From an uncultured virus (IMG/VR IMGVR_UViG_3300032135_000002) (Duplodnaviria > Heunggongvirae > Uroviricota > Caudoviricetes): a DNA stretch of 64,000 nt. Under the pieces are notes generated by a model that had not been told where the DNA came from, did not search any database, and worked only from the letters and a program-made list of their open reading frames with translations. Location of the stretch: the IMG/VR virus record IMGVR_UViG_3300032135_000002; one strand, given 5' to 3'. Positions 3,683 to 51,809 of this stretch are shown piece by piece. The position numbers and the translations under genes are program-made. Position 1 is the stretch's first letter; each line of letters opens with the position of its first letter.

Positions 3683-4132
3683 ATGATTCTTTGGATTCCT
3701 GAGCTTCAGCCAACAGAATGGCCTAATGGCACTATAGAAAAAATGGACCCAAAAATTCTAAAGGCTGCTATTGCCTTAAGAACAGAATCTGGAATACCCA
3801 TGACTCCAAGCCCAATATATAAAGGGCATGTAAGACAAAATGGAAATTCAAGGCACAGCATAAAAGAAGGAAAACGTCTTTCAGACGCTACCGATTTTTT
3901 TGTAAAATCTGATGTTAAAAGTATTTACAAAATAATTCAGTCGATATCCACGGTTTTAGAAATACGTGGTTGGGGTGTCTACTTTGATACTAAGCCAAGC
4001 GTCATGTTTCACATAGACTGCAGACCAGATTGCCTGGAGTGGATACGAGTAAACGGAAAATACATCTACGCTGTTAATAACCCTTCATTATATTACTCCG
4101 AACTTGCAAAACAGTTGAGCAAACTTAATTGA
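3683..4132 (+). CDS. Putative endolysin, peptidase M15-like
   Basis: Zn-peptidase pattern NSRH...ATDF...GWGVY...FHIDCR. Confidence 0.65.
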   Translation: MILWIPELQPTEWPNGTIEKMDPKILKAAIALRTESGIPMTPSPIYKGHVRQNGNSRHSIKEGKRLSDATDFFVKSDVKSIYKIIQSISTVLEIRGWGVYFDTKPSVMFHIDCRPDCLEWIRVNGKYIYAVNNPSLYYSELAKQLSKLN

Positions 4133-5695: not shown

Positions 5696-6136
5696 ATGAT
5701 CAAATTTGCAGCTTTTTTAATCGTCGGCATGATAGTCACATTGGCAGCCCACGCGGCCCCGGCTACATCTGAGCTAAGTTGGACAGCCCCGGACACCCGG
5801 GTTGATGGCACTCCACTGACGCTGGAAGAAATAAAAGAGTATCGGGTGTACTACACCGTGGACGGGCAGACGCCGGGCGACGGCTCCCCTGTTGTCGTGA
5901 ATGGCGCGTTAGGCAGCCAAACGGTAACACTAGAGCTGTTGCCCCGGGCCACTCCCTATGTTGTGGGGTTTGCTATTACCACCGTAGATACCGATGGGGT
6001 TGAGTCTGTGCGCTCGGATGTAGTCAGCAAGACATTCAACATCGACAGAATCGTGAAACCTTCTGCACCGACGAACCTACAGTTCAACATTACCTGCGGT
6101 GATGGCTGTACGATTACTGAAAAAGTGGGGCAGTAA
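5696..6136 (+). CDS. Secreted fibronectin type III-like protein
   Basis: Signal peptide ending AHA; LSWTAP...YRVYY...VDTDGVES...KPSAPTNL. Confidence 0.75.
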   Translation: MIKFAAFLIVGMIVTLAAHAAPATSELSWTAPDTRVDGTPLTLEEIKEYRVYYTVDGQTPGDGSPVVVNGALGSQTVTLELLPRATPYVVGFAITTVDTDGVESVRSDVVSKTFNIDRIVKPSAPTNLQFNITCGDGCTITEKVGQ

Positions 6137-6435: not shown

Positions 6436-7154
6436 TGACTCAGTTCTTTGAAGACTTCCGAGGTAAGACCCTCGACTCCACTCCACCGGAGTTTTCCGTT
6501 GCTTGGGAAGGGCCGCTCAGTCTGCTCGTAAAGGCAGGGAACCCGCTTGCCGGAAGCGCCAATCACCTACAGGTAATCCCGACCTCAACCGGTAGCTTTA
6601 GGCGAACAGCGGTAAAGTGGGACGTAGGAACTACATCCGGGAAAACAACGGTACGATTTCTGGCTCAGTTTTCGCCTGCCAATGTCACGATTCCGGGGGC
6701 TTTCCTAAGTGGCTCTGGAGCCACCGCTCAGCGTACGGGTTATGTGCAGTGGTGGGGTAGCAACCATAGAATATCGAAGTACGATAACGGTGGCGATTCG
6801 GCCATAGCGTCAGGGTCAACACCGCTTTCTAGTAGCGGTACCCCCACGTACTACTTTGAAATCATCAGAGACGGGGCGCTTGTAGAAGTCAGAGCTTGGG
6901 ATGTTGGTGGTACTAGGCCGGCAACCGCAGACGCATCAGTGACCGACGCGACTCCTCTACCTGTTGCGGGTTTTTTTGGTATTTCTTACCTTACGAACTC
7001 CAGCCCGACGATGGAGGTCTACGAAATAGCCGTAGGCACCAACGGCGACACAGCCCCGACCGCACCGGTCTCAACCGGTCCAGCTACCCCCGTTAACCTC
7101 GGCGCTACTAACATCCTCACTACCTCGGCCCGGCTTACTTGGGAGCAAGGATAA
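6435..7154 (+). CDS. Lectin-like beta-sandwich virion protein ending in half of an Fn3 domain
   Basis: FFEDF start, beta-rich core, C-terminus PATPVNLGATNILTTSARLTWEQG. Confidence 0.6.
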   Translation: MTQFFEDFRGKTLDSTPPEFSVAWEGPLSLLVKAGNPLAGSANHLQVIPTSTGSFRRTAVKWDVGTTSGKTTVRFLAQFSPANVTIPGAFLSGSGATAQRTGYVQWWGSNHRISKYDNGGDSAIASGSTPLSSSGTPTYYFEIIRDGALVEVRAWDVGGTRPATADASVTDATPLPVAGFFGISYLTNSSPTMEVYEIAVGTNGDTAPTAPVSTGPATPVNLGATNILTTSARLTWEQG

Positions 7155-9622
7155 TGGCTATCGACGTACCGCAGGCTGATAAAGACGCGCTGGTTGCTTT
7201 TTACAATGCGACGGGCGGCTCCAGCTGGAATACAAATACAAACTGGCTAGTCACAGAAGGTGTGGGTGACTGGTACGGAGTGACAGTCAGTGGCGGGCGT
7301 GTTACTGCGCTTGACCTGGCTTACAATAACGTGGTCGGGGCGGCTGGCAGCAGTTTAGCGGCCCTCACCTCCCTTACCACTTTGTATTGCAACGACAACT
7401 CGCTCACCACTTTGGATGTATCGGGGCTTACCTCGCTGACCGGCCTGTACTGCGGATACAACTCAATCACGACCCTAGGTGTGGCAGGGCTTACCTCACT
7501 GACAGAGATTCAGTGCTACGCCAACTCGCTCACAACACTGGATGTATCCGCACTCACGGCGCTGACCGTGATATCCTGCGGATACAACACGATCACCACA
7601 CTGAACGTATCAGCCCTCACCTCCCTGTCAAGTCTGTATTGCACCAATAACTCAATCACAACATTAGATGTAGCAGCCCTTACGGCGCTGACCATTCTGA
7701 ACTGTGAAAGCAACTCGATTACCACACTGGATGTATCAGCCCTCACGTTGCTGACAGAGATTAAGTGCGACGATAATACAATCACAGCCTTGGATGTATC
7801 CGCCCTTACGTCACTGACCACGCTATATTGCTTCACCAACGCGCTTACCACGTTGAATGTGGCAGGGCTTACCTCCCTGACAAACCTGCTGTGCTACGCT
7901 AATTCGCTCTCATCGCTGGACGTGTCAGGGCTTACCTCGCTGGTAATTCTGGACTGCAACAACAACTCGATTACGACCCTAGACGTAGCAGCCCTTACGT
8001 CGGCAACGTGGATTCAATGCAACAACAACTCAATTGCGGCATTGAATGTATCCAGCCTTACGTTACTGACCAAGCTGTACTGTGCCGACAATGCCATGAC
8101 CGCAGGGGCCATAGACAATATACTAGGTGGGGTAGATTCAGCTGGACCAACTAACGGGACGCTTCAAGCCGACGGCACAAACGCGGCTCCCTCAGCGACA
8201 GGGCTAGGCTATAAAGACGCTCTAGTCGCAAAAGGCTGGACGGTGACAGTGGCCGCAGCACCTACCACATATGTAGACATTGCGGCCGCTGCCAGCAGCG
8301 CCCTGACCGCTGCCGGTAGTGCAGGGGGTACACTGTCCTATACCCTCGAATGGCGACTAGTCGCTGGCCCGGGCGCCACGACTACTGTGACGGGCATCAC
8401 CGGACTGTTCTATGATCTGACAGGACTGACTCAGGCAACCCAGTATGAGTCCCGGGTACTGGAAACGGACGGGGTAACGCCCTCCGCGTTCTCGGCGTGG
8501 TACTCGTTTACTACGGCAGCGGAAGTCACCTACGTAGACATTGCGGCAGCGGCTGCAAGCGCGCTGGCCACTTCGGGCACAGCCACCACGCTCAAGTCTG
8601 TAGCGGGCACAGCTTCTAGCGTGCTCAGCACTACGGGCACGGCGTCTACTGTCCAAAGCGTTGCTGGCACAGCCACTGCGGCGCTAAGCACTTCGGGCAC
8701 AGCCACCACGCTCAAGTCTGTAGCGGGCACAGCCACTGCGGCGCTAAGCACTACAGGCGCAGCGGCGGTTACCAAGTCGGTGTCTGGCTCGGCTACTGCT
8801 GCCCTCACAACAACCGGAGCGGTCAGCGGGGGCACGACAGCCGCAGGTACTTCGTCCTCAGCGCTAAGTGCTTCGGGCACGGCGGCTATCAGCAAGTCTG
8901 TAACTGGCTCGGCCACTGCAGCACTTAGCGCTGCCGGCGATACTACCAAGCTGGTGACCGCAGCGGGCGCGGCCACTGCTGCGCTAGCAACCACCGCCGC
9001 CGGCTCTAAGGTCATATCTGTAGCGGCAAGCGCGGCGGCCACGCTTACGACTTCCGGCAGTGCGTTTGGGGGCGCGGCGTCAGACGCTTCGGGCTCAGCT
9101 GCCGCCACGCTCACAGCGTTGGGCGCAGCCGTAGCAGACAGGGCGGCAGCGGCAAGCGCGTCGAGCACGCTGACTGCCTCGGCCAGTGCTGCAGTTACCA
9201 AGACCGTCGGCGGCTCGGCCAGTGCAACGGCGTCAGGGCTGGCCAGTGCTGCCGTTATACGCTCCGTGTTCGCAAACGCGTTCTCGGTGCTGACGACTAC
9301 CGGCGCTGCTGTATCGGGGGTGGCTTCAGATTCAAGTGGTAGCGCTTCCAGCACGCTACTGGTGTCGGGAACCGCAGCCAAAACAGTCAGTGTCAGTGCT
9401 GGTGCGCTGGCTACGCTGACTGCAACGGGGGTAGTAGCCAGCAGCAGAGACGCCGCGGCGGCGGCGTTTGCTAGGCTCATAGCGAGGGGTGATACAACAG
9501 GCGGAACCGTTGTGCAGCCGCGCAGTCTCTACGCGGACGAAGTGAGTATTTTCCCGGCCATGTCGTGCTACACTGCTGTAATACCAGCGCTGTACGGCGA
9601 CGAAGTCGTACGACCTAGATAA
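7154..9622 (+). CDS. Leucine-rich-repeat / Fn3 / Ala-Thr-Ser-repeat fibre-like protein
   Basis: ATG 7154 overlaps upstream TAA; LRR N-cap (DKDALVAFYNATGG...W...WYGV), 12 LRRs, partial Fn3, long A/T/S/G repeat region. Confidence 0.85.
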   Translation: MAIDVPQADKDALVAFYNATGGSSWNTNTNWLVTEGVGDWYGVTVSGGRVTALDLAYNNVVGAAGSSLAALTSLTTLYCNDNSLTTLDVSGLTSLTGLYCGYNSITTLGVAGLTSLTEIQCYANSLTTLDVSALTALTVISCGYNTITTLNVSALTSLSSLYCTNNSITTLDVAALTALTILNCESNSITTLDVSALTLLTEIKCDDNTITALDVSALTSLTTLYCFTNALTTLNVAGLTSLTNLLCYANSLSSLDVSGLTSLVILDCNNNSITTLDVAALTSATWIQCNNNSIAALNVSSLTLLTKLYCADNAMTAGAIDNILGGVDSAGPTNGTLQADGTNAAPSATGLGYKDALVAKGWTVTVAAAPTTYVDIAAAASSALTAAGSAGGTLSYTLEWRLVAGPGATTTVTGITGLFYDLTGLTQATQYESRVLETDGVTPSAFSAWYSFTTAAEVTYVDIAAAAASALATSGTATTLKSVAGTASSVLSTTGTASTVQSVAGTATAALSTSGTATTLKSVAGTATAALSTTGAAAVTKSVSGSATAALTTTGAVSGGTTAAGTSSSALSASGTAAISKSVTGSATAALSAAGDTTKLVTAAGAATAALATTAAGSKVISVAASAAATLTTSGSAFGGAASDASGSAAATLTALGAAVADRAAAASASSTLTASASAAVTKTVGGSASATASGLASAAVIRSVFANAFSVLTTTGAAVSGVASDSSGSASSTLLVSGTAAKTVSVSAGALATLTATGVVASSRDAAAAAFARLIARGDTTGGTVVQPRSLYADEVSIFPAMSCYTAVIPALYGDEVVRPR
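7364..8098 (+). repeat. 12 x 63-bp (21-aa) LRR tandem array
   Basis: Consensus LTSLTxLxCxxNSITTLDVSA. Confidence 0.9.
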
Positions 9623-40512: not shown

Positions 40513-40670
40513 GGTTCTTACCGTTTATTGGTTTCCGCAGGTGCCACGTCGATTTTGCTGGCTGGCGCGTGGACCACGATTCCGGGTACACAGCTGAGAC
40601 GCTTGAAGTCGAGTGGCTGTTTGTCAGGATAACTCTGTACACGTTCGGTTATCGCAAAGGACCGCTATGA
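40509..40670 (+). CDS. Small hypothetical protein (53 aa, not in ORF track)
   Basis: MRFLPFIGFRRC...; ATGA overlaps at both ends. Confidence 0.5.
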   Translation: MRFLPFIGFRRCHVDFAGWRVDHDSGYTAETLEVEWLFVRITLYTFGYRKGPL

Positions 40671-43060
40671 GCGCCCCGACCAAAATTCAGAAGCTCCTTG
40701 CTGGGCGCGAACTGGCTCGGCGCCGGTTACTGCACTTCACGAAGGTGACCCACGGGTCCTACGACGCCGGCTGGGTGCACGAGGATATCTGCCGCCGGCT
40801 TGAGAAGTTCTCTAAGGACGTGGCCGACGGCAAGTCGCCAAGACTCATGCTCCTGATGCCCCCACGTCACGGTAAAAGTGAGCTGGCCTCGATACGCTTC
40901 CCGGCGTGGCACTTTGGCTCGTACCCCCACCACGAAATTATCAACGTCGGTTACAACACCGAGCTGCCCATGAAGTTCTCGCGCAAGGTGCGGGAAGTCA
41001 TGCGCGAAGGTCAGTATCAGGGGATCTTCCCCAATGCAGCACTCGACCCTAATTCTCAGTCCGTAGAAGCGTGGTACACAACTGCCGGCGGCGGATTTAC
41101 CGCGGCGGGTGTTGGTGGTGGTATTACCGGTAAGGGCGCGCACGTTCTGGTTATCGACGACCCTATTAAGAACCAAGAGGAAGCAGACAGCGTGTCTGTC
41201 CGCGACAAGCTCTGGGACTGGTACCAGTCGACGGCGTACACCCGCTTGGCGCCCGGCGGCGGGGTGCTGGTTATCGAGTGTATGACGGGTGATACCCCGG
41301 TCAGACTCCCCAACGGCTCAGAACGTCGTCTTGACGAGCTGCGTGCAGGGGACGTTATTGCTACGTATGAGAATGGGAAATTATCATCTTCTCGCGTGGC
41401 TAATCACCGCAGTAGTGGTAATGATCACATCTTGAGGATTACCACGAGTTCCGGTAAAATAGTACGTGCTAACGGACGGCATCCGTTCTTAGCTACGACA
41501 ACTACCGGAGAGTTAAAGTGGATAAGAGCGCGCAGCCTGTCATTAGCGAACAAAATCGTAACCGTAAAGGCCAGTGGGGGAAATACGCAGGGGTCGAATG
41601 CGCCGCAGCTGATTGCGACAAACCCGCCAAGTGCAGAGGTTTCTGCCCTAGTCACTACAGTAAGTGGAAGTGGGCTAGTGGGTACCGCGCCCCGTCTGCT
41701 AACCCAGTCTCCCAGCGCGCAGCACACCTCAAGTACAGATATGGGATCACAGCGGACGAGTACCAAGCCCTCCTTGAAGAACAGAATGGCTTGTGCGCAA
41801 TCTGCAGAAAAACTGGCAAAGACTCCAGAAACCCAGATCGGTGGAACCACATCCTCGCCGTCGACCACTGCCACGACTCCAACAAAGTCCGAGGGTTGCT
41901 CTGCAACGACTGTAACGCTGGAATCGGACATCTTGGAACTGAGTCCATCGCACTTGCCGCTGCACGATACCTCCGACTTCACGCTTGATGAGATAGTCAG
42001 TATCGAGCCTGATGGTGTCGAGGAAGTGTTCGATATCTCTGTCGAACGTACCACGAACTTCATCGCTAATGGCGTGGTATCGTCGAATACATGGTGGAAC
42101 GACGATGACCTCGCCGGCAGGCTCCAAGATTCCATGCGCAGGGATCCTGAGGCGGATCAGTTCGAGATCGTGAAGTACCCGGCTATTTCGGGCCAGTACG
42201 AATATCGCAACGACGAGACGAACGCGATTGTCTGCTTTACCGAAGACCCCAACCTGCTCGAAGGTGATGACGCTACCAAAGGGCTGACCCTGCTACGTAA
42301 GCCCAACGAGTGTCTGCACCACGGTCGCTACCCGCTTAGCGCCTTGAAGCGCATCAAAGCGAACTTACAGCCCCGGATCTGGTCGGCTTTGTTCCAGCAG
42401 AACCCTGTTCCTGATGAGGGCATGTACTTCCGGAAGGATTATTTTCGAGAGCAGCAGACGTTCCCCCAGACCTTCGGGCTTAGAATCTTCACGGCGTGGG
42501 ACTTCGCGATTGGTGAGAAGCAGGTCAACGACTGGACAGTTGGGGCCACCTTGCTCCAAGACGAGAACGACGTGCTGTATGTCCTCGACATACACAGATT
42601 TCGCGGTGACAGTTTCCAGATCGTAGAGGCCATACTCGACACCACTGAGCGCTACAGTTCGTTGGCCGGAGTGGACTATCAGGTGGGTGCCGAGGACGGC
42701 ATGATATGGCGGTCCATCGAACCCTTGTTGAAACGCCGCATGGGCGAGCGCCGGCTGTTCCCGGTTATTGAGCCGTTACGGCCAATAACAGACAAAGCTG
42801 CACGGGCCCGCCCGTTGCAGGGTAGAATGCAGCAGGGCCGGGTTGTTTTCCCGGCAGAGGCGCACTGGAAGGGGACGGCAGTATCCGAGATGCTAAGATT
42901 CCCGGCAGGTGCGCACGACGACGTAGTGGACGCGCTGGCGTGGGCCGTCCGTTTAAGCATGATGTCCGAGCCACCACAGCAGCCGCAGGAGCGCCGGATA
43001 CCTTCATGGCGAGACAAGCTAACAGCCGCCGGCAACGCCGGCAGCCACATGACCGCATAG
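40667..43060 (+). CDS. terL: Terminase large subunit, intein-containing
   Basis: MPPRHGKS, GITGKGA, VIDDPIK, VIE|TWWNDDDL, AWDFA, HDDVVDAL; start ATG 40667 with AAGGA. Confidence 0.95.
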   Translation: MSAPTKIQKLLAGRELARRRLLHFTKVTHGSYDAGWVHEDICRRLEKFSKDVADGKSPRLMLLMPPRHGKSELASIRFPAWHFGSYPHHEIINVGYNTELPMKFSRKVREVMREGQYQGIFPNAALDPNSQSVEAWYTTAGGGFTAAGVGGGITGKGAHVLVIDDPIKNQEEADSVSVRDKLWDWYQSTAYTRLAPGGGVLVIECMTGDTPVRLPNGSERRLDELRAGDVIATYENGKLSSSRVANHRSSGNDHILRITTSSGKIVRANGRHPFLATTTTGELKWIRARSLSLANKIVTVKASGGNTQGSNAPQLIATNPPSAEVSALVTTVSGSGLVGTAPRLLTQSPSAQHTSSTDMGSQRTSTKPSLKNRMACAQSAEKLAKTPETQIGGTTSSPSTTATTPTKSEGCSATTVTLESDILELSPSHLPLHDTSDFTLDEIVSIEPDGVEEVFDISVERTTNFIANGVVSSNTWWNDDDLAGRLQDSMRRDPEADQFEIVKYPAISGQYEYRNDETNAIVCFTEDPNLLEGDDATKGLTLLRKPNECLHHGRYPLSALKRIKANLQPRIWSALFQQNPVPDEGMYFRKDYFREQQTFPQTFGLRIFTAWDFAIGEKQVNDWTVGATLLQDENDVLYVLDIHRFRGDSFQIVEAILDTTERYSSLAGVDYQVGAEDGMIWRSIEPLLKRRMGERRLFPVIEPLRPITDKAARARPLQGRMQQGRVVFPAEAHWKGTAVSEMLRFPAGAHDDVVDALAWAVRLSMMSEPPQQPQERRIPSWRDKLTAAGNAGSHMTA
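41279..42088 (+). mobile_element. Intein (270 aa) in TerL
   Basis: N-term CMTGDTPV, block B RANGRHPF, block F VFDISVERTTNFIANG, C-term SSN followed by Thr; excision restores VLVIE-TWWNDDDL. Confidence 0.93.
41518..41988 (+). CDS. Endonuclease VII-type (His-Me) homing endonuclease, overprinted in an alternate frame inside the intein
   Basis: GTG with GGAG 7 nt upstream; C....C...G.C..HY Zn module, YGIT..EY, CAIC, LAVDHCH, VRGLLCNDCNAGIG, YL. Confidence 0.92.
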   Translation: MDKSAQPVISEQNRNRKGQWGKYAGVECAAADCDKPAKCRGFCPSHYSKWKWASGYRAPSANPVSQRAAHLKYRYGITADEYQALLEEQNGLCAICRKTGKDSRNPDRWNHILAVDHCHDSNKVRGLLCNDCNAGIGHLGTESIALAAARYLRLHA

Positions 43061-48677: not shown

Positions 48678-49367
48678 ATGACTCCGGAAGACGTTATTAC
48701 CCTGTTTCGAGCTGAGTTCGGAGACACCGTCGCCCCCCATCTGTGGAGCGAGGGCGAAGCTGCTGTATACCTCACCGAGGCGCACAGGCAGTTCGTTCTT
48801 GGTTTAGGTGGGATTCCGGACATCGTCCCGGTTGATTACCTTCCTGATGAGCCATTTTCAAATATAACCCCTTTGCTGCACACCGTCCGGAAGGCTTATC
48901 ATCCGGACGGTGAGCCTCTGACTACTCGAAACATCGAGGAGCTAGACACTACGTCGCGGCTGTATCGTCCTGATAACCGCCGGTACCGCCCACTCGAACT
49001 CGTTCTCGGGCTTAAAAGAAACCAAGTACGCTGGATGCCAGTACCCTCGGAAGCGGGGGCTATTGAGCTGGCGATTTATCGCGCGTCCTCTTTGGTGGTC
49101 ACCTCAGACACTATTGAGACTGCAGAATTTGAGATAGAAGACCAGTACCACCGGTCTTTAGTGTATGGCATGGCCGCACAGGCGCTGCTAAAACACGATG
49201 CTGAGACGTTTGACGAGCAGAAAGCCCAAGAGTTGCAGGCGCGTTTTTTTGGTGTTATCACGGAAGCCAAAGCTGCCCGCGACAAACGGGATTACACTCC
49301 GCGGTCCATAGTGTATGGGGGCCCTGAAATAGGCGGTAACAGTTACGGAGGTCGCGGTGTCTGGTGA
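48678..49367 (+). CDS. Head-tail adaptor-like protein
   Basis: FR....D...P.LWS..E...YL.EA...EI....H..L...K.DAETFD. Confidence 0.7.
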   Translation: MTPEDVITLFRAEFGDTVAPHLWSEGEAAVYLTEAHRQFVLGLGGIPDIVPVDYLPDEPFSNITPLLHTVRKAYHPDGEPLTTRNIEELDTTSRLYRPDNRRYRPLELVLGLKRNQVRWMPVPSEAGAIELAIYRASSLVVTSDTIETAEFEIEDQYHRSLVYGMAAQALLKHDAETFDEQKAQELQARFFGVITEAKAARDKRDYTPRSIVYGGPEIGGNSYGGRGVW

Positions 49368-49560
49368 TGAACATAACGAGAGGGCGCTTACAGACGAGGA
49401 AATTCGTGAAATCCGGGGAATTATAGAAGCGGACAAGCGAGCTAAATGGCTTTGGGCAACTATCCGCACCGGTTCAATCTGGTTAGCGGCTGTTTTAGGA
49501 GCTCTGATGTTGGCTTGGGACTCGCTAGGGAGAATATTGCGGTCAATCGTTGAGCGGTGA
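49357..49560 (+). CDS. Small membrane protein, holin-like
   Basis: One TM; parallels 3018..3227. Confidence 0.6.
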   Translation: MSGDEHNERALTDEEIREIRGIIEADKRAKWLWATIRTGSIWLAAVLGALMLAWDSLGRILRSIVER

Positions 49561-50039
49561 AACCCATGTTGCGAGCTATATTTGGTAGAGCTGAATGTGA
49601 TGCAAGACACCCCCCTTCGCGCCGTAGGAATACTATGGGACGATACACTTATTGGGCTTTGTGCTTTGCTCTTTTCGCCGGCAGTTGGCTGACGTTCAAG
49701 GAGTTTGAGAGCCGCTTTTTTCCGGTAGTTACAGACTTCCGGATAACTGAGGTGGTAGAACAGGTAGACAGCACCGTCGACATTTATGGCTCCTTCTCAA
49801 AAGTACGCGACTGTGAATTTGTAGGGGTGGTAGCTTACTCCGGCCCAACGCTGGTCCGCGTCAGTTTCGTGGACGGAGAAGGTAGACTCTACCCAGACGT
49901 GACGCGGTTAGCCCGAAAGCAGTTTTTTGGTCCTTGGCGGCTGGAGCCAAAGACCGCGCAGTTAGAGCTTTATGTGACCCACAACTGTTCTACAGGGATA
50001 GTTGTCACCGAGTTGTTTGAAGGAGCGCTGGTTTTATGA
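49557..50039 (+). CDS. Membrane-anchored periplasmic protein of lysis cassette (start may be ATG 49635)
   Basis: TM then FPVVT...KVRDC...HNC; parallels 3227..3676. Confidence 0.65.
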   Translation: MKPMLRAIFGRAECDARHPPSRRRNTMGRYTYWALCFALFAGSWLTFKEFESRFFPVVTDFRITEVVEQVDSTVDIYGSFSKVRDCEFVGVVAYSGPTLVRVSFVDGEGRLYPDVTRLARKQFFGPWRLEPKTAQLELYVTHNCSTGIVVTELFEGALVL

Positions 50040-50443
50040 AGCTGAATGAAATGCCTTTTCGCAAGTGCGACGACCATGGGTGCGGCCATTGGCATGCTGG
50101 CCGGGGTAGCCGGTTGCATAATGGCGTCGATCTGGAATGCGTGCCCGGGACTACTGTAGATTCGCCAATCAGCGGGGTAATCACCAAGCTGGGCATCGTG
50201 TACGCTGATGACCTTCACTGGCGGTACGTTCAGATCAGCGCGGGCAAATACAATTTTCGCCTATTCTACGTGGACCCAACGGTCTCTAAAGGGGACGTCG
50301 TAGTTTCGGGCCAGCCAGTAGGCACCCACCAAGCGCTGGGTGGCCGGTACCCCGGCATTACCGAACACGTCCACTTTGAAATAAAGGACGCTAAAGGGGA
50401 GTATATCGACCCAACGCCGACGTTATTGGTGATGGGGGGATGA
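50036..50443 (+). CDS. M23-family (LECT2-like) Zn protein, putative endolysin
   Basis: HNGVD and HVH Zn motifs, DP C-terminus. Confidence 0.85.
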   Translation: MKLNEMPFRKCDDHGCGHWHAGRGSRLHNGVDLECVPGTTVDSPISGVITKLGIVYADDLHWRYVQISAGKYNFRLFYVDPTVSKGDVVVSGQPVGTHQALGGRYPGITEHVHFEIKDAKGEYIDPTPTLLVMGG

Positions 50444-50533
50444 GCTGAACCACTCGCCGTGGGAGAACAAGAGCGCTCCAGCCGGCGGTGAGCGCCTTGC
50501 CCGGGTACACGCTCCGGGTATAACACCGGTCTG

Positions 50534-50565
50534 CGGGCCCCTCTGAAAAGGGGGGCCCGTTTTTT
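50534..50565 (+). terminator. Intrinsic terminator
   Basis: CGGGCCCCT-loop-AGGGGGCCCG-TTTTTT. Confidence 0.75.
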
Positions 50566-50609
50566 AAGTAACACAGGTATACTGTAGGGAATTACAGGTC
50601 GGGGGCGTA

Positions 50610-51809
50610 ATGTCAAAGAAGGTAAGCCTAAGCAATTGGGAGAACGGGGCGAACAACATCGCCCCCGAAGACCGCCTACCTGATGGTTTTGTCCGCGACC
50701 TGCTGAACCTAGACCCGGTCGGTGGAACCCTCGAGATGCGCACCGGTTACGAGCTGGTTGCCGCGGGTACCGACGTGCGGGCGGTGATGGCGCTAGGCTC
50801 CAAAGTTTTGTATGTAGACGGGGCCACTCTGATCGAGTTTGACATGTTAACCAACGCTTCACGCACTCTGCGCAGCGTTGCTGGGGCCGGCTCAGTCTCT
50901 TCTTGTGTCCATAACCACGAACTGTTTTTCTCTACCGTGAACGAGACTTTGCGCTACGACGGCAAAAACGTACGGGAGTGGGGCGTCCCTGACGTCACCG
51001 GCCAGCCGCTGGTGAGTATCAGCGACCAAATAACCGGGCGCCGGTTGTACGCCATGACCTACACGAACCAATATGGCGAGGAAGGCGGCACGGTTTCCGC
51101 GGCCAACGTCCCCGAGGGCGTGTATGAATTCACTATTCCCCCTCTCGCAGCCGGCCTAAAAGCAAACCTGTATGTGTCTTCTCTCAACGGTCGGACTTTA
51201 TACCTACAGGGAACTTACGAAACGGCAGGCCCCGTAACGGTTAACCGCCCAGTAGACGACACGCAGACGCTGGCCACTATGCACATGCGCAAGCCTTCTC
51301 CAGCCACACATTTAGCGTCCAAAAACGCCGTTATTCTAAGCGCTGTGGGGTCGGCCCTACAAGTTACCAGCCCTATGGCGCCGCACCTAGTCTCGCCGGC
51401 GAGCGCGTTTTTTCAATACCCGACGGGCATAGGTATGGTTCTACCAGGCTCCCGGGGGGTGTACGTTAGTGCAGACAAGGTCTACCAGCTTCGGGGGGCA
51501 GATACCGACAAGCCCGACCAGAATGATATATCCGACTATCCCGCCGTGGCAGGCACTGGGGTTTCGCTCGCAGACGGGCGAGCTGCTTGGTTAACGAGGT
51601 ATGGAATGAGTATAGAAAGCGCAGATGCCCGTGAAGGGGTTATACAGCCGAACCGGCAGTCGTTCGTTCCCCAAGAGGCGACGCAGGGTGCCAGCGGTGT
51701 TGTGGACAATAACGGCAACGAGATGGTTGTCACCACCCTGAAAAACGGCGGTCAGCCGAATACGCTGGTCGCCAGCGACTACTTTGAAGCGGAGGTTATA
51801 CGGCCATGA
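50610..51809 (+). CDS. Tail (nozzle/stabilisation-like) protein
   Basis: GANN.....LP....RD..N.D...R.G pattern; beta-rich. Confidence 0.65.
   Translation: MSKKVSLSNWENGANNIAPEDRLPDGFVRDLLNLDPVGGTLEMRTGYELVAAGTDVRAVMALGSKVLYVDGATLIEFDMLTNASRTLRSVAGAGSVSSCVHNHELFFSTVNETLRYDGKNVREWGVPDVTGQPLVSISDQITGRRLYAMTYTNQYGEEGGTVSAANVPEGVYEFTIPPLAAGLKANLYVSSLNGRTLYLQGTYETAGPVTVNRPVDDTQTLATMHMRKPSPATHLASKNAVILSAVGSALQVTSPMAPHLVSPASAFFQYPTGIGMVLPGSRGVYVSADKVYQLRGADTDKPDQNDISDYPAVAGTGVSLADGRAAWLTRYGMSIESADAREGVIQPNRQSFVPQEATQGASGVVDNNGNEMVVTTLKNGGQPNTLVASDYFEAEVIRP

Follow-up and report, generated by a model that had tools for sequence, protein, structure and literature searches.

LECT2 is a liver cytokine and forms amyloid. 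Peptides such as pentaglycine were reportedly tested by Zheng in 2016 in connection with the structure of LECT2. In PMC9662197, LECT2 is described as the sole mammalian M23 protein and as degenerate; PMC10034042 lists it as the only vertebrate member of M23, with three disulfides. The zinc of M23 enzymes is bound by the H(x)nD motif together with the second His of HxH, and the first His of the latter motif activates the water. A further His about 30 residues before HxH only "might participate" in catalysis, and Arg21 of EnpA is proposed to stabilize the oxyanion (all from PMC9662197). A passage search of PMC12596118 found no mention of LECT2. A literature search, with subscription papers mostly outside its coverage, found no paper on phage or bacterial LECT2-type proteins.

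The gene described here lies at positions 50036..50443 (plus strand) of the window, i.e. the whole stretch of 64,000 nucleotides that was analysed. It encodes a LECT2-type M23 zinc peptidase of 135 aa that is likely an endolysin; the LECT2-type assignment draws on Pfam, PDB and fold matches and on residue conservation. The coordinates given in the preliminary description are exact and all motifs quoted there are present. Translation starts at an ATG located 10 nt downstream of the ribosome-binding motif AAGGAG (50020..50025, plus strand). The protein matches the Pfam M23 family PF01551 with E 1.7e-10 and 41.4 bits (cut-off 28.7 bits), and its H(x)nD and HxH motifs are H28-x3-D32 and H111-x-H113.

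The lysis slot of a KPP25-like phage

The 134-kb contig consists of two joined phages, a part with a GC content of 0.41 (1-67600 of contig C1) and a KPP25-like part with a GC content of 0.535. The junction is visible in the window, with one phage up to about position 5700 and the other at 5774-64000. The M23 gene is located inside the KPP25-like part of about 66 kb, the ends of which repeat at 89% identity over 792 bp, suggesting that this part is complete. The low-GC part is missing from an independent assembly of 62 kb. The terminase large subunit gene contains an intein (40613-43060), and one of the tail-region genes (7139-9622) encodes an 827-aa protein with leucine-rich repeats (LRR_4, E 1.6e-27).

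In KPP25 the gene order is capsid, two structural genes, adaptor, small genes, endolysin and Hc3. The order in the source phage is the same, with the slot between the head-tail adaptor (48678..49367, plus strand) and the head closure protein Hc3 (50610..51809, plus strand) filled by two small genes and the M23 gene. A GH19 endolysin directly precedes Hc3 in KPP25 and in Rollin, the match of the KPP25 endolysin to GH19 being weak (E 2.8e-5). No lysin is annotated at the slot before Hc3 in Acidovorax phage AP1, and the GH108 lysozyme of ctwe8250 is located after the portal gene and not at the slot. Two loci that are close by Hc3 (L064 and L065) are uninformative on the slot because a large structural gene sits before Hc3.

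The first of the two small genes (49357..49560, plus strand) encodes a 67-aa protein with a single hydrophobic stretch, a holin candidate by position only, for which Pfam and PHROG gave no match. This gene travels with the M23 gene, and a copy in another locus (L013) is 51% identical. The second (49557..50039, plus strand, probable start at 49635) encodes a function-unassigned protein of 134 aa and its stop overlaps the start of the M23 gene. An apolar N-terminal helix and a β-sandwich are predicted for it (pLDDT 66), and a fold search with this model returned no match. The M23 gene is directly downstream in all eight loci found to carry the 134-aa gene. In three of these eight, the M23 gene is followed by a small membrane-type gene and then, two genes past M23, by a spanin-like gene; the single one tested is Rz-like in PHROG. 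The cassette ends with an intrinsic-terminator-like hairpin and T run (50533..50570, plus strand) from a consensus scan, with a stem at 50533-50560 of 12 pairs including 9 G-C. The M23 gene is thus positioned in a lysis slot. Among the scanned ORFs of the source phage neither Pfam nor PHROG matched a holin or a spanin, and the holin-like character that the preliminary description had ascribed to the two upstream genes comes down to their position.

Additionally, lysis genes are found around relatives of the M23 gene. A PHROG holin or Rz-like spanin is present within three genes of it in 21 of 50 loci, as a raw rate and with two of the loci (L008 and L045) being one sequence; the remaining 29 have no labelled lysis neighbour. 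The scan comprised 143 hand-picked ORFs from 50 of the 60 loci, leaving out the source phage, five near-duplicates and four bacterial loci. In one locus (L003) the order is Q antiterminator, M23, holin and spanin. At another locus beyond the window (L042), genes for a lipoprotein-like protein of 111 aa and for a protein of 66 aa (8302-8830) follow a 2651-aa virion protein; both gave no library match and are possible spanin components.

Another endolysin elsewhere in the genome would speak against such a role for the M23 gene, but Pfam and PHROG scans of the ORFs of the source phage, many of which belong to no family, found no other lysin. The window gene at 3683-4132 was considered as a second endolysin and dismissed; it has no Pfam, PHROG or PDB match and has no bearing on the question because it belongs to the other, low-GC phage. 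In three near-complete relatives (G002, G008 and G010), 134 of the 139 ORFs that reach 100 aa were compared with PHROG; no other endolysin family came up, and one ORF of G010 was labelled as an unassigned "hydrolase". A reverse transcriptase is encoded in G002 (L085, 14975-16333). The annotation of the cultured Salicola phage CGphi29 contains no other lysin. Lysozyme PF00959 was found in none of 40 records, and seven further lysin families gave a single match, SLT in G039, against CGphi29 and the 15 records that are at least 90% complete. The eight families searched do not include Amidase_3, GH25 and CHAP. GH108 and GH19 control phages were detected. These absences are soft, since the muramidase search detected nothing anywhere and the Amidase_2 search missed a real amidase of G039 that is detected by PHROG.

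Likeness to LECT2 and the zinc site

The resemblance to LECT2 noted in the preliminary description was borne out by database searches. Human LECT2 (pdb entries 9non and 5b0h) is the top match of the 135-aa protein in a phmmer search of all PDB sequences (E 4e-18, 68.8 bits), and the next M23 protein, the best bacterial one, follows at E 6.7e-6. An AlphaFold model of the phage protein (pLDDT 95.5) gives the same ranking. LECT2 is first in Foldseek (E 5e-10, TM 0.79) with EnvC second, and first in VIA-align with a Z-score of 18.8 and an r.m.s. deviation of 1.9 Å over 125 residues (next Z 16.4). The VIA-align score of EnvC is level with those of active enzymes. On the sequence level the likeness to LECT2 is far above chance.

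In the column of Tyr78, His is the residue in 26 of 29 canonical M23 domains, and Tyr is shared by 109 of 110 vertebrate LECT2s, a correspondence derived from the alignment (a pairwise display with LytM is off by one residue). Thus, the second His about 30 residues ahead of HxH, a trait of the canonical lysostaphin and LytM type, is replaced by Tyr in the phage protein. The preliminary description took this for the loss of the catalytic His. The substitution itself stands, but the lost residue is the upstream auxiliary His (His260 type of LytM). His111, the water-activating first His of HxH, and the three zinc ligands H28, D32 and H113 are intact. These ligands are near-invariant in the family, whereas the loss of zinc ligands marks the non-catalytic LytM factors (EnvC and NlpD). 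Furthermore, all traits of the LECT2-type branch are present: Tyr for the upstream His, the R-x2-D-x2-G-x-G loop, Y56 and Y105. The predicted site is completed by R23. The signal peptide and the three disulfides of vertebrate LECT2 are absent, the N-terminus not being hydrophobic and only three cysteines being present.

The CDxHGC loop, also reported as shared with LECT2, is indeed present in the phage protein. Its cysteines are not a shared trait, as both are found in only 42 of 218 family domains (neither in 167, the second alone in 9) and each in just 37 of 110 vertebrate LECT2s. In both microbes and vertebrates the pair is optional, and it was rejected as a signature of LECT2. The conserved loop has the pattern R-x2-D-x2-G-x-G...R.

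The family in phages, bacteria and vertebrates

The matches of a profile search fell into 266 clusters at a threshold of E ≤ 1e-30, rising to 1856 at 1e-10; among the best 150 clusters listed, one is crocodilian myeloid protein 1. Carriers include 40 IMG/VR loci (among them the source phage), 19 loci in bacterial genomes and CGphi29 (55% identity). Judged by these searches, the 135-aa protein is a typical representative of a large phage and bacterial family that has no name. The site is highly conserved. In 220 non-animal domains, not de-replicated and assigned as non-animal from sequence and tree, Y78 is kept without exception, D32, H113 and Y56 in 219 and H28, H111 and R23 in 218, with D12, G15 and G17 each in 218-219. 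Among the vertebrate LECT2s, R23, H28, D32, H111 and H113 are kept in 110 of 110, and each residue of the set R23, H28, D32, Y56, Y78, Y105, H111 and H113 in 108-110. ESM Atlas labels the family clusters, which are mostly viral, as M23 proteins only. The Pfam label LECT2_C fits one of them; the link to the LECT2 family is therefore latent in the databases.

Of 51 longer members, a single one (P0178, a fusion to PG_binding_1) contains a recognised wall-binding domain. Several bacterial members (Caulobacteraceae and others) are exported forms with N-terminal hydrophobic anchors or signal-like segments (L049, L051, L058, P0099, P0101, P0103, P0061 and P0135). P0091 is a fusion with the domain behind a DHH/DHHA1-type protein, which may be a read-through or a gene-calling artefact. 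In the phage G039 the LECT2-type domain forms the N-terminus of a 943-aa protein (L040, 5962-8793), and the same phage has an amidase. The domain is probably virion-associated there; since it heads such a large protein in a phage with its own amidase, members do not all share one role.

Each of the 18 vertebrate domains has its best score with the family (52-95 bits), above the 22-40 bits obtained with canonical M23s. In a maximum-likelihood tree of 46 rows (28 of 240 family, 6 of 18 vertebrate and 12 of 29 canonical domains), with several family rows picked for their best scores with vertebrates and no invertebrate sequence included, the family and vertebrate LECT2 split from the canonical M23s with a support of 100/100. 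The same clade has an SH-aLRT of 99 in a quick tree of 96 rows and of 87 when two long rows are kept. The phage protein is placed in the LECT2 clade, and the grouping with ordinary M23 enzymes that would have argued against the original proposal is not seen. The vertebrate sequences come out as one derived clade (100/99), either inside the family or next to it, and share a node (99/95) with 12 members that are mostly bacterial or of the toxin type; the 135-aa protein is outside this node. It was also ruled out as the nearest microbial relative of LECT2, as other members outscore it against all 18 vertebrate domains, and bacterial members are closer to LECT2. A topology in which the family is a single clade without animals is not rejected by an AU test (p 0.186). 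No invertebrate LECT2 was found among the matches listed (best 120 of 471). The kinship of the family and LECT2, with ordinary M23s outside the group, is firm in these sequence comparisons, and the direction of transfer was likely from the microbial family to vertebrates.

The LECT2-type domain also caps the C-terminus of RHS or toxin-like proteins (L056, L054, L059, L072-L075 and L080). In L056 (1050-5048) it is the C-terminus of a 1139-aa RHS-repeat protein. In L054, L056 and L059 the gene is followed by one for a protein of about 188 aa; these three proteins are homologous, begin with a signal-peptide-like segment and occur in one copy per genome. The family of this partner is exported, TPR-like and unnamed; it has a conserved MCGAAY motif and no close solved relative. 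A metagenome scan with the partner as query yielded 10 loci. An M23 domain is directly upstream in five of them (three distinct sequences), four have less than 200 bp upstream and one has a different gene there. The partner was found in none of 40 viral loci.

A complex prediction of the L056 pair with zinc scored 0.87 (best control 0.01). Among solved complexes, 116 of 157 reach this mark, as do 2 of 215 mismatched pairs; both figures apply only roughly to the alignments used. The runs agree in at least 92% of the contacts and the pLDDT of the partner is at least 86. The predicted interface is located on the active-site groove and comprises the equivalents of R23, H28, 53-60, R75, Y105 and H113. 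A C-G-A-A stretch of the partner is predicted inside the zinc groove and is possibly a substrate mimic. The RHS-tip domain and the exported partner are a likely toxin-immunity pair, since an exported protein placed on the zinc groove in the model would fit immunity to a periplasmic wall-cutting toxin. In L050 (5445-6398) and L060 (1606-2076), different genes of exported or lipoprotein-like type come after the members and may represent additional immunity families.

Proposed function and comparison with known systems

The LECT2-type M23 zinc protein in the endolysin slot of this KPP25-like phage is probably an active endolysin. It is likely a working cell-wall peptidase because the gene occupies the lysin position of related phages and has the unusual zinc site of LECT2. 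Catalysis is plausible because the family keeps the whole M23 site except for the auxiliary His. The action on peptidoglycan suggested at the outset is thus a predicted activity that draws on the synteny with KPP25, the lysis neighbours of the relatives and the finding of no other lysin, and no longer on holin-like genes upstream. The endolysin would be released via a holin, and its predicted targets are the peptide cross-links in the host peptidoglycan. Zinc would be held by H28, D32 and H113 and the water activated by H111 as in LytM, with Y78 standing in for the auxiliary His beside the water. R23 may stabilize the oxyanion, as proposed for Arg21 of EnpA, and Y56, R75 and Y105 would line the groove. 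The cleaved bond is a guess, namely the D-Ala-diaminopimelate cross-link of a Gram-negative host.

Alternatively, the protein might be non-catalytic like EnvC and NlpD, binding peptidoglycan or a host amidase so that lysis proceeds via host enzymes. LECT2 is reported as degenerate and as acting through protein binding (PMC9662197 and PMC10034042), EnvC is second in Foldseek, and the invariant loop and the tyrosines could form a binding surface. This is unlikely, however: the three zinc ligands and His111 are near-invariant, whereas EnvC and NlpD are described without catalytic residues or zinc (PMC9662197). Moreover, the predicted partner covers the zinc groove, and by VIA-align EnvC ties with active enzymes. 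An active wall hydrolase could also be virion-associated and used at entry, rather than being an endolysin. The location of the gene within the structural module, the fusion in G039 and the frequent presence of M23 domains on virions (PMC9662197) are consistent with that. The slot in KPP25 holds the annotated endolysin, though, the gene elsewhere comes after Q and before holin and spanin, and an alternative endolysin was not found, which makes use at entry quite unlikely for the source phage.

The likeness to LECT2 might also reflect convergence, or an animal LECT2 gene captured by a phage or bacterium. A capture would agree with the sister placement allowed by the AU test and with tree rows that lack invertebrate LECT2. 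Against it stand the far greater microbial diversity (the 266 clusters are at 50% identity) and the single derived clade of vertebrates. Convergence is at odds with the identity of about 35-40% over the whole domain and with shared insertions, and both origins are very unlikely. With an endolysin of the Tyr-type branch as the preferred reading, the degenerate-looking Tyr and the extra N-terminal loop of LECT2 would be the normal, conserved design of this branch, because the phage protein in the endolysin slot and the bacterial toxin members carry the same design. Vertebrate LECT2 probably derived from the branch by gene transfer. Far more tentatively, LECT2 might be a domesticated phage or bacterial weapon and, rather than being a dead enzyme, might still cut or bind diaminopimelate-type peptidoglycan, and this might underlie its reported antibacterial action. 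The membrane destruction by which LECT2-B of grass carp kills bacteria (PMC11929084) differs from such peptidoglycan targeting.

Should hundreds of phage endolysins and bacterial toxins prove to use this site, the view of LECT2 as degenerate would be wrong or incomplete. The Tyr in place of His would be a new catalytic arrangement in M23, and phages without an annotated endolysin, such as CGphi29, would be explained. The family would represent a compact new class of lysins, and the exported partners a candidate family of natural inhibitors of the zinc groove. The question of LECT2 becomes directly testable by using the 135-aa phage protein beside LECT2 on Gram-negative peptidoglycan.

Vertebrate LECT2 and myeloid protein 1 (5B0H and 9NON) share the fold, the R-x2-D-x2-G-x-G loop and the site residues with the phage protein. 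In contrast to them, the phage protein has no signal peptide and no set of three disulfides (only the loop pair is possible with its three cysteines), has Q99 where vertebrates have Leu or Met and R75 where they have Lys, and belongs to a phage lysis context, not to a secreted cytokine. LytM, lysostaphin, EnpA and StM23 have in common with it the HxxxD and HxH zinc site, the first His of HxH and the β-sheet groove (Z 14–16). The Arg ahead of the first His is likewise found in M23B enzymes (18 of 29 canonical domains). The phage protein differs from these enzymes by the Tyr in place of the upstream His, the extra N-terminal loop, an insertion carrying Y105 and its position in a separate clade (100/100), and it is a lone domain of 135 aa without a wall-binding domain.

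Rhs polymorphic toxins with immunity genes are a known general architecture; it is relatives, not the gene of the source phage, that bear the domain at the RHS C-terminus, followed by a conserved exported gene. In Salicola phage CGphi29, which has no annotated endolysin, the hypothetical protein SLPG_00042 is 55% identical and encoded near an Rz-like spanin, but the phage architecture is different and includes a tape-measure gene. Pseudomonas phages KPP25 and phiR18 (Kochitakasuvirus) have the same gene order around the slot and an Hc3 with 40% identity, whereas the slot holds a GH19-type glycosidase in KPP25 and the M23 protein in the source phage.
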